This document shows positions 2 through 52,515 of a stretch of DNA of 64,000 nt, one piece after another (position 1 is the stretch's first letter; each line of letters starts with the position of its first letter). The notes below the pieces were generated by a model. The model ran no database searches. It saw only the letters and a list, made by a program, of their open reading frames with translations, and was not told the DNA's origin. Both the position numbers and the translations under genes were made by a program. This DNA is from Candidatus Falkowbacteria bacterium. Lineage in GTDB: Bacteria > Patescibacteriota > Patescibacteriia > Patescibacteriales > GWE2-39-37. Where the stretch lies: positions 32,316-96,315 of the forward strand of contig JBAXJQ010000001.1 in NCBI GenBank assembly GCA_037137775.1, given 5' to 3'.

Positions 2-1117
2 ACCGAACCAGGTGCCCGTGATCGCGGTGGCGATTTAGGTTGGTTTGGTCGAGGTCAGATGGTTAAACCATTTGAGGATGCTGTCTATAGTATGAAAGTG
101 GGTGCCATTAGTGAGCCAGTTGAATCAGATTTTGGTTATCACTTAATTTATAAGCAAGCTGAACGAAAAGTAGAGGAGGCTAAAGTACAACACATTTTGA
201 TTAAAACTAAATCAGAAGTTGACATTACTGGCCCACAAACAGAGTGGAAAAATACTGAGCTTACCGGTAAAAATTTAAAGAATGCTCAAGCTCAGACTAA
301 TCCGAATGACGGTAGTCTAGAAGTTTCTTTAGAATTTGATGAACAAGGTGCAAAATATTTTGAAGAAATCACTGGCCGTAACGTTGGCAAACAAGTTGCT
401 ATCTTTTTGGATGGTTATATCATTAGTCAGCCAACGGTTAATGAAGCGATTAAGGGTGGTAAAGCAGTAATTAATGGCAAGTTTGGGGCACAAGAGGCCA
501 GGGATTTGGCCATGCGCTTAAATGCTGGTGCCTTGCCAATCCCAATTTCTTTAGTTGATCAACAGAATATCGGGGCTACCCTAGGCCAGAAATCAGTTGG
601 TGATAGTGCTCGTGCCGGCTTAATTGGCTTTGCTTTTGTGGCCATCTTTATGGTTTTGTTCTATCGTTTCCCAGGATTATTGTCCGTTGTTGCTTTGGGA
701 ATTTATGGAGTCTTGTTATTAGCTTTATTTAAGGTATTTTCTTTTGCACTTACCCTTTCTGGTTTAGCTGGCTTTATCATGTCAATTGGAATGGCCGTGG
801 ATGCCAATGTCTTGATCTTTTCCCGCTTACGCGAAGAAATTGCCAGTCAAAAACCATTTGGTCTAGCTTTGGATGAAGCATTCCGTCGTGCCTGGCCATC
901 CATTCGCGATAGTAATGTTTCAACATTAATTACTTGTGCAGTACTGTATTACACCTCGACCGGTATGGTGCGTGGGTTTGCAGTAACACTTGGCTTAGGT
1001 GTGCTTGTTTCAATGTTTACTGCTATTTTTGTCACCCGCACGTTCTTGAAATTAATTCCGGAAAACTGGCTCGAAAAATATCCTTTTTTAGTGGGCGGTA
1101 AAAAACAATCCAATTAA
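2..1117 (+). CDS. secD: Protein-export membrane protein SecD, 5'-truncated by the window edge. The same open frame upstream of the SecD periplasmic head encodes the C-terminal half of a parvulin-type PPIase (PpiC) domain.
   Basis: The frame is open from nt 2. Residues [20 protein letters not shown]...[10 protein letters not shown] match the parvulin signature. They are followed by SecD P1-head and TM motifs ([39 protein letters not shown]). secF follows directly. Confidence 0.8.
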
Positions 1118-1130
1118 ATCCAAATTTCAT

Positions 1131-2051
1131 ATGACAAATTTTAACATCATTCAAAAAAGAAATATCTGGCTCTGGATTTCAGTCGCGCTGTTTGTGGTCT
1201 TTGGCTTGGCTTTAATGGTATGGGGCTTAAAACTTGGCATCGATTTTACCGGTGGTAGCTTGCTCGAAGTTCGTTTTAGCACTAATCGACCAACAGTTAA
1301 TGAGGTTCAAGAATCACTTGCCCAAGATACTAAAGTGGGTAATTTGGGCAGCTTAATTATACAGCCTTTGGGTCAATCCGAAATGGCTTTACGTTTTCAG
1401 GAATCAAGTGAGGAAAAACACCAAGCGGTGGTAAAAAATTTACAGAGCTTAGCCCTTAAAAAAGACAAAAAGAACCAAGTTGAGGAGTTGCGTTTTGACG
1501 CGGTTGGCGCTTCAGTTGGGCAGGAATTAAAAAGCAAAGCAGTTTCTTCCATCTTTTGGGTTATGCTTTTCATTTTAATGTATATTAGTTGGACGTTTCG
1601 CAAGGTGTCTAAGCCAGTCGCTTCATGGAAATATGGTTTAGCGGCCTTAGTGGCGTTATTTCATGATGCAATCATTACTATGGGCGTCTTTGCTGTTTTG
1701 GGTAAGTTTTATGGCGTAGAGATTAACACCGCCTTTGTGACCGCAATTTTGACCGTAATCGGATACTCAGTGCACGATACTATTGTGGTGTTTGATCGAA
1801 CCCGTGAGAATCTACCAAAAAGCCACCTGGACTTTGAAGGTACGGTTAATATGAGCTTAAACCAAACCTTAGTCCGCTCCATTAATACTTCATTAACCGT
1901 ATTGCTTACCTTGATTGCAGTGACCATTTTTGGTGGCGCCTCAATTCGGACTTTTGCCCTAGCCCTTACTATTGGCATTGCCATTGGTACATATTCCTCT
2001 ATTTTTGTTGCTTCACCGCTTTTAGTAGTTTGGGAAAAATGGAAAAAATAA
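1131..2051 (+). CDS. secF: Protein-export membrane protein SecF
   Basis: 306 aa with an N-terminal TM and a periplasmic loop, then a 5-TM bundle (ALFHDAIITMGVFAVLG, TVIGYSVHDTIVVFDR). It lies immediately downstream of secD. Confidence 0.85.
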   Translation: MTNFNIIQKRNIWLWISVALFVVFGLALMVWGLKLGIDFTGGSLLEVRFSTNRPTVNEVQESLAQDTKVGNLGSLIIQPLGQSEMALRFQESSEEKHQAVVKNLQSLALKKDKKNQVEELRFDAVGASVGQELKSKAVSSIFWVMLFILMYISWTFRKVSKPVASWKYGLAALVALFHDAIITMGVFAVLGKFYGVEINTAFVTAILTVIGYSVHDTIVVFDRTRENLPKSHLDFEGTVNMSLNQTLVRSINTSLTVLLTLIAVTIFGGASIRTFALALTIGIAIGTYSSIFVASPLLVVWEKWKK

Positions 2052-3412: not shown

Positions 3413-3751
3413 ATGGATATGGATGATATTACAATTAGAGAGGTAGAAAATATTATTTCAGAGTTTGCTACAAAAAAAGGCTTGGGAATTAATCCGGAAG
3501 AGATTAATACACCAGAAAAATTTGTATTACTGCATAGCGAAGTGAGTGAGGCCTATGAAGCCTATCGTCGAGGAAGAATGGACGGCAAGGATGGACTGTC
3601 GGAGGAATTAGCTGATATTGCTATTCGGTTATTTCAATTAGCTATTATCTTCAAAATTGATCTGGGTCAAGAGATTGTAAAAAAAATTGACTACAATCAA
3701 CATCGTGAGTGGCAGCACCCTAACGAAACTATAGTTAAAAATAATGTTTAA
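3413..3751 (+). CDS. MazG-like nucleoside triphosphate pyrophosphohydrolase, small all-alpha NTP-PPase
   Basis: 112 aa with EExxE-type motifs (LLHSEVSEAYEAYRRG, EELADIAIRL) typical of the MazG/dimeric dUTPase-like fold. Confidence 0.5.
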   Translation: MDMDDITIREVENIISEFATKKGLGINPEEINTPEKFVLLHSEVSEAYEAYRRGRMDGKDGLSEELADIAIRLFQLAIIFKIDLGQEIVKKIDYNQHREWQHPNETIVKNNV

Positions 3752-4787
3752 TAAATTATTTGGTAAATTAAGTCATGATCTTGGTATTGATCTCGGCACT
3801 AAAAATACCCTGGTCTATGTAGAAGATAAGGGTATTGTTATCAACGAGCCAACAGTGGTGGCGGTTAATACCCGAACCGATGAAATTTTAGCCGTTGGTG
3901 AAGAGGCTCGTCGCATGATTGGCAAGACGCCATCTCATATTCAAGCTATCAAACCCCTGGTCGATGGGGTAATTTCTGATTTTGAGGTAACGGAAAAAAT
4001 GTTGAAGTATTTTATCGATAAGGCACATGAAGGTGGTTTTACTTTTTCCCCTCGCCCACGGGTTATTATTGGTATCCCGCTCGATATTACCGAAGTAGAA
4101 AAAAAGGCGGTGGAGGATGCGGCCAAATCTGCCGGTGCTCGTAAAGTGTATTTAATTGAAGAGTCGATGGCAGCAGCTATTGGTGCTCATTTGCCGGTTA
4201 CAGACGCCACCGCAACCATGATTGTTGATATTGGCGGCGGTACAACTGAAATTGCCGTAATCTCTTTAGGTGGTGTGGTTACATATAAAACGTTACGTTT
4301 AGCCGGTAATGAATTGGATAATAATATTACCCAGTATATTAGGGAAGAATATAATCTATTAATCGGTGAACAAGTAGCAGAAAGTATTAAAATTAGAATT
4401 GGTTCAGCTATACCAATGCGCGAACCGATGGAAATGGAAGTTCGAGGTCGAGACTTGATAAATGGCTTGCCACGTAGTATTACGATTGGTGATGCTCAAG
4501 TACGCGAAACCATGGGCCGTAGTTTGCATCAAATAATTGATAACATTAAAGCAACACTCGAAGCCACGCCGCCAGAACTCGTGGCTGATATTTACGAAAA
4601 AGGTATAGTCTTAACTGGTGGCGGTGCACTGTTAAGAGGATTGGACAAGGCAATAGCACAGGAAACAAAAATTCCCGTACGTGTTGCTGATGATCCACTT
4701 ATCTGTTTGGCCAAAGGAACGGGAATGTTGTTGGCCGATCCGGTCTTGCTCAATAAGGTATTATCTTTACCGAGTGAGGAACTGTAA
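3744..4787 (+). CDS. mreB: Rod shape-determining actin homologue MreB
   Basis: MFNKLFG..DLGIDLGTKNTLVY, DIGGGTTEIAVISLGG and the C-terminal PLICLAKGTG are all canonical MreB motifs. Confidence 0.92.
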   Translation: MFNKLFGKLSHDLGIDLGTKNTLVYVEDKGIVINEPTVVAVNTRTDEILAVGEEARRMIGKTPSHIQAIKPLVDGVISDFEVTEKMLKYFIDKAHEGGFTFSPRPRVIIGIPLDITEVEKKAVEDAAKSAGARKVYLIEESMAAAIGAHLPVTDATATMIVDIGGGTTEIAVISLGGVVTYKTLRLAGNELDNNITQYIREEYNLLIGEQVAESIKIRIGSAIPMREPMEMEVRGRDLINGLPRSITIGDAQVRETMGRSLHQIIDNIKATLEATPPELVADIYEKGIVLTGGGALLRGLDKAIAQETKIPVRVADDPLICLAKGTGMLLADPVLLNKVLSLPSEEL

Positions 4788-4808
4788 TATTTAAAACAGC
4801 TTACTTAT

Positions 4809-5609
4809 ATGAAAAAGCTCAATAGCAAACGATTGAGTTTGATTGGAGCAGTAATCGCCTTACTGCTATTTTTGCATTACAGTCGTTTGCTACTACCAGT
4901 AGAGGGTTTTATGTCGCAAATATTTAATCCGTTAACACAACGACTATATGGGGCGACAAGTCATTTGCGTTTTTTTTATGAAGAGCAGACTGATCGTCGT
5001 GATCTAAATCAAACAGTCAAAGACTTAGAAAAACAGGTAAGTGCCTTAACACAGGAAAATGCCAAATTGAAATTATTGGACGAAGAAAATCAAAGCTTAC
5101 GGAATTATTTGAAATTTTTACAACCTCGTTCACGCCATTATGTAATGGCAAATGTTATTGGTCGCGAAGATGTTGATCAAATTAGTCAGATCATTATTTT
5201 AGATAAGGGTAAACAAGACGGAGTGTTATCCGGCTATGCTGTGGTAAATGAAAATGGCCATATCGTTGGCAAGGTGTTGGAAACGAAAGATCATGAAGCT
5301 CAGGTTTGTTTGGTTACCAGCGGGCGTTGCCAGTTGGCCGTAGCTATTCAAAACCAAAATCGCACCATTGGCATTGCCAAAGGTGAGCTAGGCTTGGTGG
5401 TTAAAGTTGATTTTATTCCACAAAGCGAACAAATTGAAAAAGATCAAACAGTAATCACCTCTGGACTTGAGAAATCGATTGAGCGCGGCTTGGTGGTTGG
5501 CAAAATTACCGAAGTTATTAAACAAAATAACGAATTATGGCAAACTGCTCGGGTTGAACCTTTGGTAAATCCGGATAATTTATTAACGGTAGCGGTAATG
5601 CAACCCTAA
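4809..5609 (+). CDS. mreC: Rod shape-determining protein MreC
   Basis: N-terminal TM, a coiled-coil (LEKQVSALTQENAKLKLLDEENQSL) and then a beta-domain. It sits between mreB and mreD. Confidence 0.75.
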   Translation: MKKLNSKRLSLIGAVIALLLFLHYSRLLLPVEGFMSQIFNPLTQRLYGATSHLRFFYEEQTDRRDLNQTVKDLEKQVSALTQENAKLKLLDEENQSLRNYLKFLQPRSRHYVMANVIGREDVDQISQIIILDKGKQDGVLSGYAVVNENGHIVGKVLETKDHEAQVCLVTSGRCQLAVAIQNQNRTIGIAKGELGLVVKVDFIPQSEQIEKDQTVITSGLEKSIERGLVVGKITEVIKQNNELWQTARVEPLVNPDNLLTVAVMQP

Positions 5610-5610
5610 T

Positions 5611-6168
5611 ATGAATCTGAAAACATTTTGGCAATATTTTTTTTATAGCTTTGCAATTTTATTAGTAACTGAAATTCAGCTGGGTGCTTTGCCGGCCATG
5701 CCAGGAGTCTTGGCCTATACAGATGTTGCGATAATTTTTTTATTAGTTGTCTTGGTGCTTTATGATGTCACCACGGCGTTTTATTTTGGTTTAATGCTGG
5801 GCATTATTTTTGATGTGTTGAATTTTTGGTCATTTGGTCAGGCGGTAATTGGTATTGAAGTCGTACTGGTGGTTTGTTATATATTATTAACTAAAGTTTT
5901 TACTAATCGATCGCTCTATTCATTTTTAGCCTTAACTTTGATCGCAACCGTGGTATATTGGTTGGCGATTCGAATAACTGATATAACCACAGGATTTGTA
6001 TTTTCGGCACCTAGTCATTTGTTTTTTAACCCCGTAGCATTACGTTTATTGGGCTGGAAAATTGGCTTAAATTTAATAACATCAGCCATAACTTTCCAGA
6101 TAGCAACATTTATCAGCCACAGCTTAAAACCTGTCTTTTTGATGAAAAGCAATTATGTTAACCGATAA
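5611..6168 (+). CDS. mreD: Rod shape-determining protein MreD, polytopic membrane protein
   Basis: 185-aa hydrophobic protein between mreC and pbp2. Synteny supports the call; sequence conservation is weak. Confidence 0.55.
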   Translation: MNLKTFWQYFFYSFAILLVTEIQLGALPAMPGVLAYTDVAIIFLLVVLVLYDVTTAFYFGLMLGIIFDVLNFWSFGQAVIGIEVVLVVCYILLTKVFTNRSLYSFLALTLIATVVYWLAIRITDITTGFVFSAPSHLFFNPVALRLLGWKIGLNLITSAITFQIATFISHSLKPVFLMKSNYVNR

Positions 6169-8206
6169 AAAAAATGTAAATCAAGGCGATAATCCTTTTG
6201 TTATTCAGCAAGGACGGTTAAAGCATGGTAAAATTACTTCTTCATACCGATTAGGCTGGACAGAGGATGCGTTTATTATGGACGCAGGTCGCAAAGACGT
6301 TGTCGGTCGTACTATTTCAACAACTTATTTTAAATATCTCTTTGCTGGATGTTTGGTTTTTATTGGTTTACTTTTCGGACGGACGGCTTGGCTACAGGTT
6401 GCACAAGGCGATTATTATTATAAGATGGCCGAGGGAAATCGTATTAGAATTGAACGTATTGATTCTAAGCGCGGTATAATCTTCGATCGTCATGGCAAAG
6501 CTTTAGTTCGAAATCAAGCAAATTTTATGTTGTATTTGGTGCCGAGCGATCTGCCTAAAGATGATGCAGGCTTAGCCGCGGTTATTAAGCGGGTTAGTCA
6601 ATTAATTGGACCTTTGGGAAATTTAAATGGTGTACCAACAAATAATGAACAAAATATTAATGAAGCATCAGTTGAGTCTTATATTTTGGGGAAAATAAAA
6701 CCGATAAACAGGAAGTCGATTGCCGCTCTCGAGCCAGTATTTATTGCGGATAATTTGCCATATGAAAAAGCGTTGGCCCTTTCACTCGAGTCAACCGGCT
6801 TGCCTGGTGTTGTTTTATCAAGCTCGGCCAGACGACAATACAATGTTTCCGAAGCCGCTTCGTTAGCCCATGTCCTCGGCTATACCGGCAAGATAAATGA
6901 CAAGGAATTAGCTAAAGTAAAAACCGGCTATCAACCCATTGACTACATTGGCAAGTCTGGTTTGGAAAATTATTGGGAAAGTGAATTGCGAGGTGGCTTT
7001 GGTCAAAAACAGGTCGAGGTTGATGCCATGGGTAAAGAAAAGCGAATAATTAGCATTAAGCCAGCGGTTGACGGACAAGACTTAATTTTGTCCTTAGATT
7101 ATAATCTGCAAGCGAAAATTGAACAAATTACCAAGTCATATTTATCTGCAGCAAAATTAAGCCGTGCTTCGGTAGTAGCGATGGATCCGCGGTCGGGTGA
7201 GGTGTTGGCCATGGTCAGCTTACCGGCCTATGATGACAATATTTTTGCTCGGGGCATCAGTCAAAAAGAATATGATATTTTGTTAAATGATCCCGATCGT
7301 CCATTATATAATCGTAGCATGGGTGGCGAATTTCCTTCTGGGTCTACGATTAAGCCAGTGATTTCGGCTGCGGCCTTGCAAGAGGGCATAATTACTGAGA
7401 GTACGACATTTCTAAGTAATGGTGGCTTACGGATTGATAAATGGTTTTTTCCAGATTGGAAAGCTGGCGGACATGGCATGACTAATGTAAGAAAAGCAAT
7501 TGCCGAATCAGTAAATACATTTTTTTATATTATTGGTGGTGGGTATGAGGGCACAACCGGGCTAGGTGTTGATCGCTTGGCGAAATACTTTAAGCTTTTT
7601 GGGTTAGGCAGTCAGACCGGCATTGATTTGCCCGGTGAAGTGGACGGATTTGTACCGAGTAAAGAATGGAAAGAAACAACTAAAAAAGAAAATTGGTATA
7701 TCGGTGATACGTATCATCTTGCCATCGGCCAAGGCGATTTAAATGTTACTCCATTGCAGGTGGCCAATTACACTGCCTATTTTGCTAATGGGGGTAAATT
7801 GTTAGTGCCACATTTGGTTAAGGAAATTAGGCCAAGCGGCAGTCAGGTTGGTACGCCCGTGCCCGTCAAAATCATTCGTTCAGGTATTGTAAACCCCGCT
7901 TATGTGCAAATTGTGCGTGAGGGTATGCGTCAAACCGTAGTGGCTGGTAGTGCGCGTAGTTTGCAACAAGTGCCCGTGCCCATGGCGGGCAAAACAGGAA
8001 CGGCGCAGTGGTCTACTAAAAAAGATCCACATGCCTGGTTTACGGGCTTTGCGCCATATGACGACCCAACAATTGTTATTACGATTTTAGTTGAGGAAGG
8101 TAAGGAAGGTAGTACAATCGCCGTGCCGATCGCTCGGGAAGTATTACAATGGTATTTTGCCAGTAATCCAAAAATAAGTCCGACTTCAACGCCGGCTGCG
8201 TTTTAA
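6155..8206 (+). CDS. mrdA: Penicillin-binding protein 2 (peptidoglycan D,D-transpeptidase MrdA)
   Basis: N-terminal TM and a dimerisation domain, then transpeptidase motifs STIKP (SxxK), SxN and KTGTAQ. It lies in an operon with mreBCD. Confidence 0.88.
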   Translation: MLTDKKNVNQGDNPFVIQQGRLKHGKITSSYRLGWTEDAFIMDAGRKDVVGRTISTTYFKYLFAGCLVFIGLLFGRTAWLQVAQGDYYYKMAEGNRIRIERIDSKRGIIFDRHGKALVRNQANFMLYLVPSDLPKDDAGLAAVIKRVSQLIGPLGNLNGVPTNNEQNINEASVESYILGKIKPINRKSIAALEPVFIADNLPYEKALALSLESTGLPGVVLSSSARRQYNVSEAASLAHVLGYTGKINDKELAKVKTGYQPIDYIGKSGLENYWESELRGGFGQKQVEVDAMGKEKRIISIKPAVDGQDLILSLDYNLQAKIEQITKSYLSAAKLSRASVVAMDPRSGEVLAMVSLPAYDDNIFARGISQKEYDILLNDPDRPLYNRSMGGEFPSGSTIKPVISAAALQEGIITESTTFLSNGGLRIDKWFFPDWKAGGHGMTNVRKAIAESVNTFFYIIGGGYEGTTGLGVDRLAKYFKLFGLGSQTGIDLPGEVDGFVPSKEWKETTKKENWYIGDTYHLAIGQGDLNVTPLQVANYTAYFANGGKLLVPHLVKEIRPSGSQVGTPVPVKIIRSGIVNPAYVQIVREGMRQTVVAGSARSLQQVPVPMAGKTGTAQWSTKKDPHAWFTGFAPYDDPTIVITILVEEGKEGSTIAVPIAREVLQWYFASNPKISPTSTPAAF

Positions 8207-8805: not shown

Positions 8806-9014
8806 GTTCTTCCTCCCTTTTCCGGTCCTACTAGTGGCGATGGTGGATTTGCCACTAAACCGTATGTAAAAAACAAAAAAACTGCCTGTTGCCTCCAAAC
8901 AAGTAGTTAGATTGTTTAATTATTTGGAGTATATACTAATAGAGGGGTATTGTCAAGCCTTATAATTACTATTTTGGCTAACATTGAAATTATTTTAATA
9001 TTATGGAAAAATGA

Positions 9015-32204: not shown

Positions 32205-32837
32205 ATGTGTAGCGAATTTAAAACATCCCTTTTTGAAGAACCTTTAATCATCGACTACACGGCGTTGCTTAAGGAGGCAAGAGATTTTTCGCCAGAGTTA
32301 AAAAATGCCATAGAAGGTGTGATTAATGAAAAGATTGGCAATATTGCCAGGCGAAAAAACATTATTATATCATCGAGCTGGTTATACGAAATTGAAGATA
32401 GGCTTAATCATGATAATCCAGCAACAATAAATTCTGATTTACGTAAAATTATTTTAAAGCTGCTAATAAAAATTACAAACAGTAACTTGGGCGTAAGTTC
32501 AGACAATAAAGAATTAAAACTATTACTTCATAATTTAACTTTGGAAGATAATAATGCTGATCTAATAGAAAAAGGAGCACACCCGGCCTTGGTCGGACAA
32601 TACGGCGATGGGCACCAAGAAATTAAGGAGATTCTTGGCACAAATCCTTACATAAAAAATCATGGTAGAGGTAAAGAAGATGATATTGGCCATATTTATC
32701 GAACTAAGGGAAGTAGACGAGTGAATGGTAATTCTTCAAAACAGGTAATAACCGATCCAAATCAAGAATGGCTAAAAACACATGAGCGGGAAAAAGAGAA
32801 GGCAGAAGATGAATTAAGAAAACTTCGTTTTGGATAA
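32205..32837 (+). CDS. Hypothetical cytosolic protein (210 aa), AT-rich; its 3' end overlaps the htrA start
   Basis: Long ORF with a possible co-transcription overlap with htrA. I recognise no motif in it. Confidence 0.4.
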   Translation: MCSEFKTSLFEEPLIIDYTALLKEARDFSPELKNAIEGVINEKIGNIARRKNIIISSSWLYEIEDRLNHDNPATINSDLRKIILKLLIKITNSNLGVSSDNKELKLLLHNLTLEDNNADLIEKGAHPALVGQYGDGHQEIKEILGTNPYIKNHGRGKEDDIGHIYRTKGSRRVNGNSSKQVITDPNQEWLKTHEREKEKAEDELRKLRFG

Positions 32838-47141: not shown

Positions 47142-47215
47142 GGTCGCATGGCTCAGTTGGTTAGAGCGCACCGTTCACATCGGTGAGGTCCCAGGTTCGA
47201 GTCCTGGTGCGACCA
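47142..47215 (+). tRNA. tRNA-Val (anticodon CAC)
   Basis: Cloverleaf with acceptor GGTCGCA/TGCGACC, D-arm GCTC-AGTTGGTTA-GAGC, anticodon arm CACCG-TTCACAT-CGGTG and T-arm CCAGG-TTCGAGT-CCTGG. CCA is not encoded. Confidence 0.9.
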
Positions 47216-47224
47216 CAAGTAAAG

Positions 47225-52086: not shown

Positions 52087-52487
52087 TTCTAGGTCAAACA
52101 GGCGGCTGCTCGGGGCAAAAAATATGCCTCGGGAGGAAAGTCCGGACTCCAACAAAATGATGGTGGCTAACGGCCACGAGGAGTAATCCTACGGAAAGTG
52201 CCACAGAGACAATACTAGCTTCGAGTTAATCGAAGTGAAAGGTGAAAAGTTTCAAGAGGTTTTCGTTCTATTGGCTAGCCGTTTAACGAAGGCTACTTGA
52301 TTCGCTCCCATGTGAGTGGGATGCGTGGTAAACCCCATCTGGAGCAAGAGCAAACCTATAGGTTGTTGCATAAGCAATACGCTATAGATGAAAAGTGGCT
52401 CGCTTGAAGCGATTGGTAACAATCGTTCCAGATAGATAGTCGTCCTCTTAATTAAGAGACAGAATCCGGCTTACGGTTGGCCTAGAA
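52087..52487 (+). ncRNA. rnpB: RNase P RNA (bacterial rnpB)
   Basis: P4 strand GGGAGGAAAGTCCGGACTCC, the GTGCCACAGAGACAA region and the 3' ACAGAATCCGGCTTACGG are all conserved. P1 pairing is ttctaggtcaaac with ggttggcctagaa. Confidence 0.85.
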
Positions 52488-52515
52488 ATATCTGCATTGG
52501 TAAAATAAATAAATT

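Follow-up and report, generated by a model that had tools for sequence, protein, structure and literature searches.

In the established model based on the Thermus and Deinococcus structures of SecDF, the P1 head binds the emerging polypeptide chain and swings using the proton-motive force (reviewed in PMC5974789), and parvulin-type peptidyl-prolyl isomerases (PPIases) have been placed close to this machinery in several bacteria. SurA binds the holo-translocon, with AlphaFold setting its parvulin domains on the SecDF P1 head (PMC9987972); in Mycoplasma pneumoniae, lipoproteins with a PrsA-like PPIase have been cross-linked to SecD and build a dome above the Sec translocon (bioRxiv 10.1101/2025.04.25.650208, 10.1101/2024.09.05.611430); and PpiD-YfgM associates with SecYEG (PMC9643414). 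The pulling mechanism of SecDF and the passage of the chain to extracytoplasmic chaperones are still debated, and the recent case for parvulin chaperones (SurA, PrsA-like Mpn444, PpiD) at SecDF/SecYEG has come from low-resolution electron microscopy, cross-links and AlphaFold docking. Here we describe a secD gene at the start of a 64,000-nucleotide stretch of DNA from Candidatus Falkowbacteria bacterium (Patescibacteriota; GenBank assembly GCA_037137775.1, contig JBAXJQ010000001.1, forward-strand positions 32,316 to 96,315; the whole stretch is hereafter called the window), in which two parvulin units are inserted into the P1 domain of SecD itself.

The window opens inside secD: a frame that is already open runs from nucleotide 2 to a TAA stop codon at 1115-1117 (371 residues), and the edge cuts the gene mid-way through the second parvulin unit (Table 1). 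An earlier note, made from the letters of the window, had read a parvulin and SecD in a single frame with no stop between them, and the 371-residue fragment does match Rotamase_3, P1_head and SecD_SecF_C (Pfam), with its PPIase region far above the Rotamase thresholds (56-63 bits against 21.7/22.5). The fragment alone also scores 313 bits with the NCBIfam secD model TIGR01129 (cut-off 244). However, with the open reading frame (ORF) already open at its edge, the window by itself cannot rule out that an assembly chimera, an overlooked frameshift or a sequencing error merged two genes. The upstream sequence is available in a public contig of 94.5 kb (GCA_964484025.1, CAZADZ010000044.1; locus L001), which is identical to the window across 12,051 nt (0 mismatches) and in which position 8871 corresponds to window position 1. 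There secD codons 1-323 occupy L001:7903-8870, the ATG lies at L001:7903, 968 nt upstream of the window and behind a 213-nt AT-rich spacer, and the complete product of 694 residues starts with a hydrophobic N-terminal helix (transmembrane helix 1, TM1) followed by the P1 base in a single unbroken ORF, without the stop or frameshift that the earlier note had named as evidence against a fusion. The 694-residue ORF is also present in a Logan assembly, where the DNA is identical, and in an ENA assembly, which derives from another strain as 28 of 2,264 overlapping bases differ, so that the ORF is repeated in three assemblies; an exact look-up of the SecF of the window returned the source contig and three other assemblies. 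A matching architecture (50-73% identity) was found in dozens of further genomes. Because the ORF is continuous to its ATG and recurs in other assemblies, the artefact explanation is refuted, and we give it practically no credence; the secD-parvulin is a genuine single gene and not an assembly error.

On the 694-residue protein the Pfam families follow in the order Sec_GG (63-81), SecD_1st (96-155), two Rotamase stretches, P1_head (406-503) and SecD_SecF_C (508-675), with E-values of 7e-32 for P1_head, 6e-17 for SecD_1st and 4e-13 for SecD_SecF_C, and a parvulin score of 128-134 bits over the two stretches, the better of which covers residues 279-374 (profile 1-95 of 97). In the window fragment alone, Rotamase_3 covers residues 2-50 with 63 bits (cut-off 22.5, E 4e-17; profile positions 63-111 of 116) and Rotamase residues 3-51 (E 7.5e-15), which corresponds to the C-terminal half of a parvulin and includes the peptide quoted in the earlier note; with these E-values chance is ruled out for both the parvulin and the SecD matches. 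Aligned with Thermus thermophilus SecDF, residues 61-152 correspond to 30-116, up to the LEFR/LEFK strand, and residues 395-677 to 146-427, leaving 242 residues in this SecD against 29 in T. thermophilus exactly where the P1 base joins the P1 head. The parvulin module thus comprises about 240 residues (approximately 153-395) after the LLEFKE strand of the P1 base. It is followed by the P1 head and by a region, aligned within 3aqp_A residues 146-427, that holds the conserved aspartate motif at the position of T. thermophilus GAAVDGNVLSF (the TM4 Asp motif) and for which AlphaFold2 (AF2) models of homologues predict long helices. The topology of SecD (TM1, a large P1 base and head, and five transmembrane helices) fits the AF2 secondary structure of the homologues, all the sequence features that define SecD were found, and the inserted units are parvulin-fold domains. 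The suggestion that a parvulin is built into the periplasmic domain of SecD therefore stands in so far as the insertion lies within P1, between base and head, but it is not an N-terminal fusion and there are two parvulin units. By the established topology of SecD, the module should be extracytoplasmic.

Searching about 5.8 billion proteins yielded relatives of SecD in the thousands, and the 120 best clusters were examined. Nearly all of these combine Rotamase families with SecD_1st, P1_head and SecD_SecF_C, with full-length members of 550-650 residues, and the named sources among the 120 were mostly Parcubacteria, Falkowbacteria, Kuenenbacteria, Uhrbacteria, Kerfeldbacteria or 'Patescibacteria group', the others carrying generic or doubtful labels ('bacterium', and one 1-kb 'Nitrospirota' contig that looks like a mislabel). 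A scan of species-representative genomes was run with a 130-residue query from the junction alignment (C-terminal half of the parvulin, the strand trailing it, and the start of the head); the best 80 of 576 relatives matched the whole query, from parvulin through trailing strand to head, and added Magasanikbacteria and Paceibacter, while the total of 576 is not a count of fusions, the seed pattern of the scan lying in the P1 head. SecD ORFs could be recovered from 66 of the 80 loci, with a parvulin in 66/66 and two units in 62/66, unit 1 starting throughout at position 9-20 and unit 2 at position 1-3 of our own small parvulin hidden Markov model (HMM). Three forms occur among the relatives: a single canonical unit, which most of the first protein set has; a single degenerate unit, with GYE for GYH and no Met/Phe pocket (P0033, P0036, P0092); and a degenerate unit followed by a canonical one, as in the SecD of the window. 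The earlier note had not known this to be a standard SecD architecture: the parvulin insert is recurrent, and the SecD-parvulin architecture recurs in many genomes of the Candidate Phyla Radiation (CPR; Patescibacteria), but it is not that of SecD in model organisms, the solved SecDF structures being without the insert.

Two observations on the relatives are recorded here in their own right. In P0003, P0019 and P0022 the membrane domain contains an extra hydrophobic insert of about 40-45 residues before 'VTLTL(A/S)G', probably one or two additional transmembrane helices, which is absent from the SecD of the window. In addition, many records of metagenome-assembled genomes titled 'uncultured Gammaproteobacteria' or 'Hyphomicrobiales' (with binchicken_* and SRP*/ERP*_co* isolate names, some of their contigs measuring 350-640 kb) contain a secD 58-70% identical to the CPR-type junction (loci including L008, L016, L029-L032, L034, L037, L038, L040, L043, L045, L047, L051, L053 and L054); the taxonomy of these records is probably a placeholder or mislabel.

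The order of strands in the inserted parvulins is unusual. In the single-unit relatives and in unit 1 the Rotamase profile begins at position 10-11 (Pfam; 9-20 in our own HMM), so that β1, with the first catalytic His, is missing from the N-terminal side of these units; canonical order, with the β1 His first, was found in unit 2 (profile 1-95) and not in unit 1 or the single units. A strand with the β1 signature (x-S-H-I-L-I-K-T-K) instead follows the last parvulin strand in all relatives, directly before the P1 head. Strand pairing, permutation and nesting were assessed from DSSP strings, profile coverage and conservation, with AF2 models of two homologues, P0077 (single-unit) and P0009 (two-unit), rather than of the SecD of the window. 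In P0077 (predicted local distance difference test score, pLDDT, 88; 93-97 locally) a strand at 240-250 (GYHIIYK) is joined by a six-residue loop to a strand at 257-266 (SRHILIK), and these are predicted to form a β4-β1' hairpin. When the trailing strand was moved in silico to the N-terminus, the Pfam Rotamase match grew from profile positions 10-96 to 1-96; P0077 then scored 80.2 bits instead of 73.3, and unit 1 of the window's SecD 59.1 bits instead of 53.7. These results support a circularly permuted parvulin, in which β1 and the first catalytic His come after the last strand. The LLEFKE strand of SecD was also considered as the missing β1 and rejected, as the Rotamase profile never covers it and does cover the re-ordered trailing strand.

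In the two-unit homologue P0009 (pLDDT 90), the strands 219-240 and 326-347 are both unbroken over 22 residues and have mirrored ends (219+347 = 240+326), with nearly equal register sums for His237/His328 (565) and Glu221/His343 (564). This pattern fits a ribbon of two antiparallel strands that spans both units, unit 2 being nested within the β4-β1' hairpin of unit 1. Conservation supports the nesting, since the middle β1 His serves the canonical unit 2 and the trailing His would serve the degenerate unit 1: where a degenerate unit precedes a canonical one (53 proteins), the middle His is kept in 53/53 and the trailing His in only 34/53, while in single-unit proteins the trailing His is kept in 49/53; of the four exceptions, three are apparently two-unit proteins in which the HMM overlooked the first unit. 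The two-unit proteins thus appear to hold a unit 2 of canonical order within the hairpin of a permuted unit 1, and in the SecD of the window the strand VQHILIKTK would, on the model of these homologues, complete the degenerate unit 1. The alternative of permuted units in tandem, in which the strand immediately after a unit closes it, was rejected, as the AF2 strands 219-240 and 326-347 are unbroken and without a hairpin turn; it is also disfavoured by the relaxation of the trailing His solely in two-unit proteins. Foldseek searches with the whole model returned SecDF first (5yhf, E 1e-23; 3aqp), and also SurA, which has two parvulins, and the PPIase domain of Ess1 (114 columns, root-mean-square deviation 2.0 Å).

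A further observation concerns the segment from β4 through the linker to β1' (window nucleotides 2-265), which matches multi-parvulin proteins in two to five stretches each, via query positions of about 70-74, and looks like the junction between tandem parvulins. Residues 1-88 of the window fragment gave 3,582 matches at E<=1e-10 among representative sequences, a number that is not a count of fusions, most of them being tandem-parvulin (SurA-like) proteins. These matches hint that the permuted insert came from a tandem parvulin array trimmed at both ends.

We consider that this patescibacterial secD gene, with its two-parvulin P1 insert, probably provides a cis-tethered foldase or holdase at the Sec exit. 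SecDF adjoins SecYEG, and its P1 head binds the emerging unfolded chain and swings, driven by the proton-motive force. Fixed at the base-head connection, the parvulin module would presumably be near the chain leaving SecYEG and would catalyse prolyl isomerisation, hold the chain, or both. It would do in cis the job that is done in trans by the lipoprotein PrsA, the membrane-anchored PpiD or the recruited SurA, and the module tethered to SecD would stand in for a PrsA or PpiD that has its own anchor. The 64-kb window and the 9 kb upstream of it contain no other parvulin. The precedents of SurA, of M. pneumoniae and of PpiD-YfgM make such a functional partnership of SecD and parvulin plausible. 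The module is likely to be a tethered PrsA-like foldase or holdase. The earlier suggestion of a foldase of the PrsA/SurA type holds for the parvulin domain, which is alike, but not for the remainder of those proteins, as there is no SurA_N or PrsA chaperone domain and the PrsA equivalog models score far below their cut-offs.

Whether the module would catalyse isomerisation or only hold the chain depends on its active sites. Unit 2 was aligned with Bacillus subtilis PrsA, Escherichia coli Par10 and human Pin1, and the active-site positions of Pin1 were taken to be H59, C113, M130, F134 and H157. In this alignment the first His of unit 2 lies in ASHLLI and the second in FGYHLIY, the pocket GQMVKPFE is near-identical to GQMQKPFE of Pin1, and a Glu (STEPG) stands at the column of Pin1 Cys113, the Par10 Cys and the PrsA Asp, where many relatives have an Asp (SEDPG). 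The portion of unit 2 within the window codes for this Glu, the Met/Phe pocket and the second catalytic His (GYH). In unit 1, Glu replaces the second catalytic His and the Met/Phe pocket is lost; at this His position the unit 1 of two-unit proteins has E in 39, N in 8 and H in 4 (n=58 scored). The last unit, by comparison, keeps the second His in 133/137 relatives together with the GGDLGW and Met/Phe pocket motifs. Unit 2 thus appears to keep the catalytic set, with a Glu of putative catalytic role, and may have PPIase activity.

Several points weigh against an enzymatic foldase at the Sec exit. In unit 2 of the window's SecD a Glu stands where characterised parvulins have Asp or Cys; some relatives have a degenerate unit only (GYE, no Met/Phe pocket), so that isomerase activity is not universally required; and the predicted template modelling (pTM) scores of the AF2 models are only 0.54-0.60, so that where the module lies in relation to the P1 head and SecYEG is only tentatively predicted. 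The parvulin domains of PpiD and SurA P1 are, furthermore, inactive or dispensable for chaperoning. The first two of these points and the last also speak for the main rival, in which the module acts as a holdase without catalysis, structurally extends the substrate-binding surface of P1, or forms a lid regulating the movement of the head, and the isomerase chemistry is irrelevant: unit 1 is degenerate in most two-unit proteins, several relatives (P0033, P0036 and P0092) have nothing else, and PpiD and SurA offer the analogy of parvulin domains acting without isomerase activity. The translocon context of PpiD is described in PMC9643414. The retention of the second His in 133/137 relatives, of the GGDLGW and Met/Phe motifs, and of the β1 His in 53/53 counts against this rival, because such conservation is expected if catalysis is under selection, and we judge it unlikely.

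Returning to the tethered foldase or holdase, its position suggests a more specific mechanism. As the module is spliced into the base-head connection, it might be mechanically coupled to the swing of the P1 head driven by the proton-motive force, so that each power stroke of SecDF would offer the chain to the isomerase or holdase; such a proton-driven 'foldase arm' would have the nested and permuted ribbon of the two units as its lever. We put this forward as a speculative possibility about which we remain doubtful. If it were true, the fusions would be an evolutionary Rosetta stone, revealing that passing substrates on to parvulin chaperones (PrsA, PpiD, SurA) belongs to the general role of SecDF throughout bacteria.

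The genes around secD bear on a different reading, in which the module serves a specific surface structure (pili, S-layer or host-attachment proteins) of episymbiotic CPR cells, or docks SecDF to the cell wall. The reliance of CPR bacteria on surface appendages would lend this some appeal, but secD lies in a housekeeping neighbourhood, with secA upstream and secF, proS and mreBC-PBP2 downstream, without pilus or S-layer linkage, and the unit resembles parvulins of the non-specific PrsA/Par10 type; we regard such a specialised role as very improbable. The rod-shape cluster at 3744-8206 indicates that this CPR genome keeps the elongasome and peptidoglycan synthesis.

Table 1. Coordinates of secD, its parts and other features in the window (nucleotide positions of the 64,000-nt stretch; aa, residues).
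Feature	Position	Strand	Remarks
secD, 3' part	2..1117	+	371 codons and stop, out of a 694-codon gene
Parvulin unit 2 (canonical), C-terminal half	2..154	+	full-protein aa 324-374; Pfam Rotamase_3 and Rotamase
Trailing β1-like strand VQHILIKTK	185..211	+	full-protein aa 385-393; carries a His
SecDF P1 head, extracytoplasmic, substrate-binding	248..541	+	Pfam PF22599, fragment aa 83-180, E 2.7e-32
P1 base return strand and SecD TM2-TM6	554..1057	+	Pfam SecD_SecF_C, fragment aa 185-352
secF	1131..2051	+	separate gene, 13 nt after the secD stop; TIGR00966 285 bits against 160; Pfam Sec_GG and SecD_SecF_C
Inverted repeat, perfect 21-nt arms, 4-nt loop	2063..2108	.	AACCATAGAAAAAACCATGGC / GCCATGGTTTTTTCTATGGTT
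mreB	3744-4787		after proS; Pfam for matching L001 genes
mreC	4809-5609		Pfam for matching L001 genes
185-aa ORF			between mreC and the PBP2-type transpeptidase gene
PBP2-type transpeptidase	6155-8206		Pfam for matching L001 genes
tRNA-Val (CAC)	47142-47216		
RNase P RNA, class A bacterial, full-length	52090-52488		224.6 bits

The inverted repeat begins 12 nt past the secF stop, has A/T runs on both sides and A-runs and T-runs inside its arms, and is likely to be the terminator of the secDF operon; the runs inside the arms would allow it to act in both directions. It was not called by a simple terminator scan. The tRNA-Val and RNase P RNA genes (Table 1) were the only RNA genes found in the 64 kb. 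The window has a GC content of 37-42%, every 8-kb block shows a positive GC skew (0.08-0.17), and nearly all of the long ORFs are on the + strand, which fits a single replichore with strong co-orientation of genes.

A literature search found no paper describing a SecD-parvulin fusion, although most subscription journals were outside its scope and this absence is not proof. The sequences themselves are not new, since the Pfam domains of these proteins are already annotated by public pipelines, and the records name the genes inconsistently, as 'protein translocase subunit SecD' or 'peptidylprolyl isomerase', which is an annotation problem. The natural fusion of SecD and a parvulin is not a new principle, but it bears on the handover of substrates from SecDF to chaperones: a covalent fusion in many genome-reduced species is independent evolutionary evidence for a SecDF-parvulin partnership. 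For structural and biochemical work the fusion provides a compact system on a single chain, and it adds what appears to be a natural case of a circularly permuted, nested parvulin fold.

Compared with canonical SecD and SecDF (T. thermophilus 3AQP/5YHF, Deinococcus radiodurans 5XAN, E. coli SecD), the protein shares TM1, the P1 base and head, TM2-6 with the Asp motif and an adjacent SecF, and its similarity to SecDF is clear in sequence (E 7e-73) and in the homologue model (Foldseek E 1e-23). The canonical proteins, however, have a 29-residue segment where this SecD has two parvulin units, and no solved SecDF has a catalytic domain there. In E. coli SecD (5mg3_D), residue 325 aligns with 407 here and with about 158 in Thermus, which leaves some 170 extra residues before the P1 head, without a Rotamase signal; the P1 segment before the head may therefore be a general hot spot for insertions in SecD.

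Among parvulins, the best PDB matches were PrsA proteins (6xd8, 6vj6). PrsA of Bacillus and Staphylococcus, like unit 2, contains a parvulin that is not phospho-specific, with SEDxGS, GGDLG and FGYHII motifs, and is likewise membrane-tethered and extracytoplasmic near the Sec exit. This SecD differs in having no lipobox or signal peptide of its own, no NC (SurA_N-like) chaperone/dimerisation domain, a permuted strand order, and SecD as its anchor. Its scores are below the equivalog cut-offs for PrsA (NF002846, 58.6 against 361 bits; NF002827, 51.7 against 343) and SurA (NF008038, 37.3 against 394), and on the full protein Pfam identified Rotamase and SecD families only, with no SurA_N or PrsA-type chaperone domain. 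Lacking the NC chaperone domain and an anchoring signal of its own, and with equivalog scores this far below the cut-offs, the SecD of the window is not a member of the PrsA, SurA or PpiD families, yet it may work like PrsA.

PpiD-YfgM of E. coli offers another parallel, as PpiD is also a membrane-anchored parvulin chaperone at the translocon that receives emerging chains (PMC9643414); in the present protein the parvulin belongs covalently to the SecD chain and appears to have its catalytic residues intact, whereas PpiD is a separate protein with its own transmembrane anchor and an inactive parvulin. SurA has tandem parvulins of which one is degenerate, as here, and the SurA match in the PDB spans both units (query 170-382), so that the partnership of SurA parvulins with the SecDF P1 head modelled by AlphaFold (PMC9987972) is covalent in this SecD; SurA differs in being soluble, in having a core chaperone domain and in serving outer-membrane proteins of diderms. 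The Sec 'dome' of M. pneumoniae (Mpn444/436/489), in an organism whose genome is also reduced, again couples a parvulin foldase physically to SecDF and SecYEG (bioRxiv 10.1101/2025.04.25.650208; 10.1101/2024.09.05.611430), but there the association is non-covalent and large lipoproteins form a chamber, whereas in the present SecD the parvulins are a small insertion within the chain.

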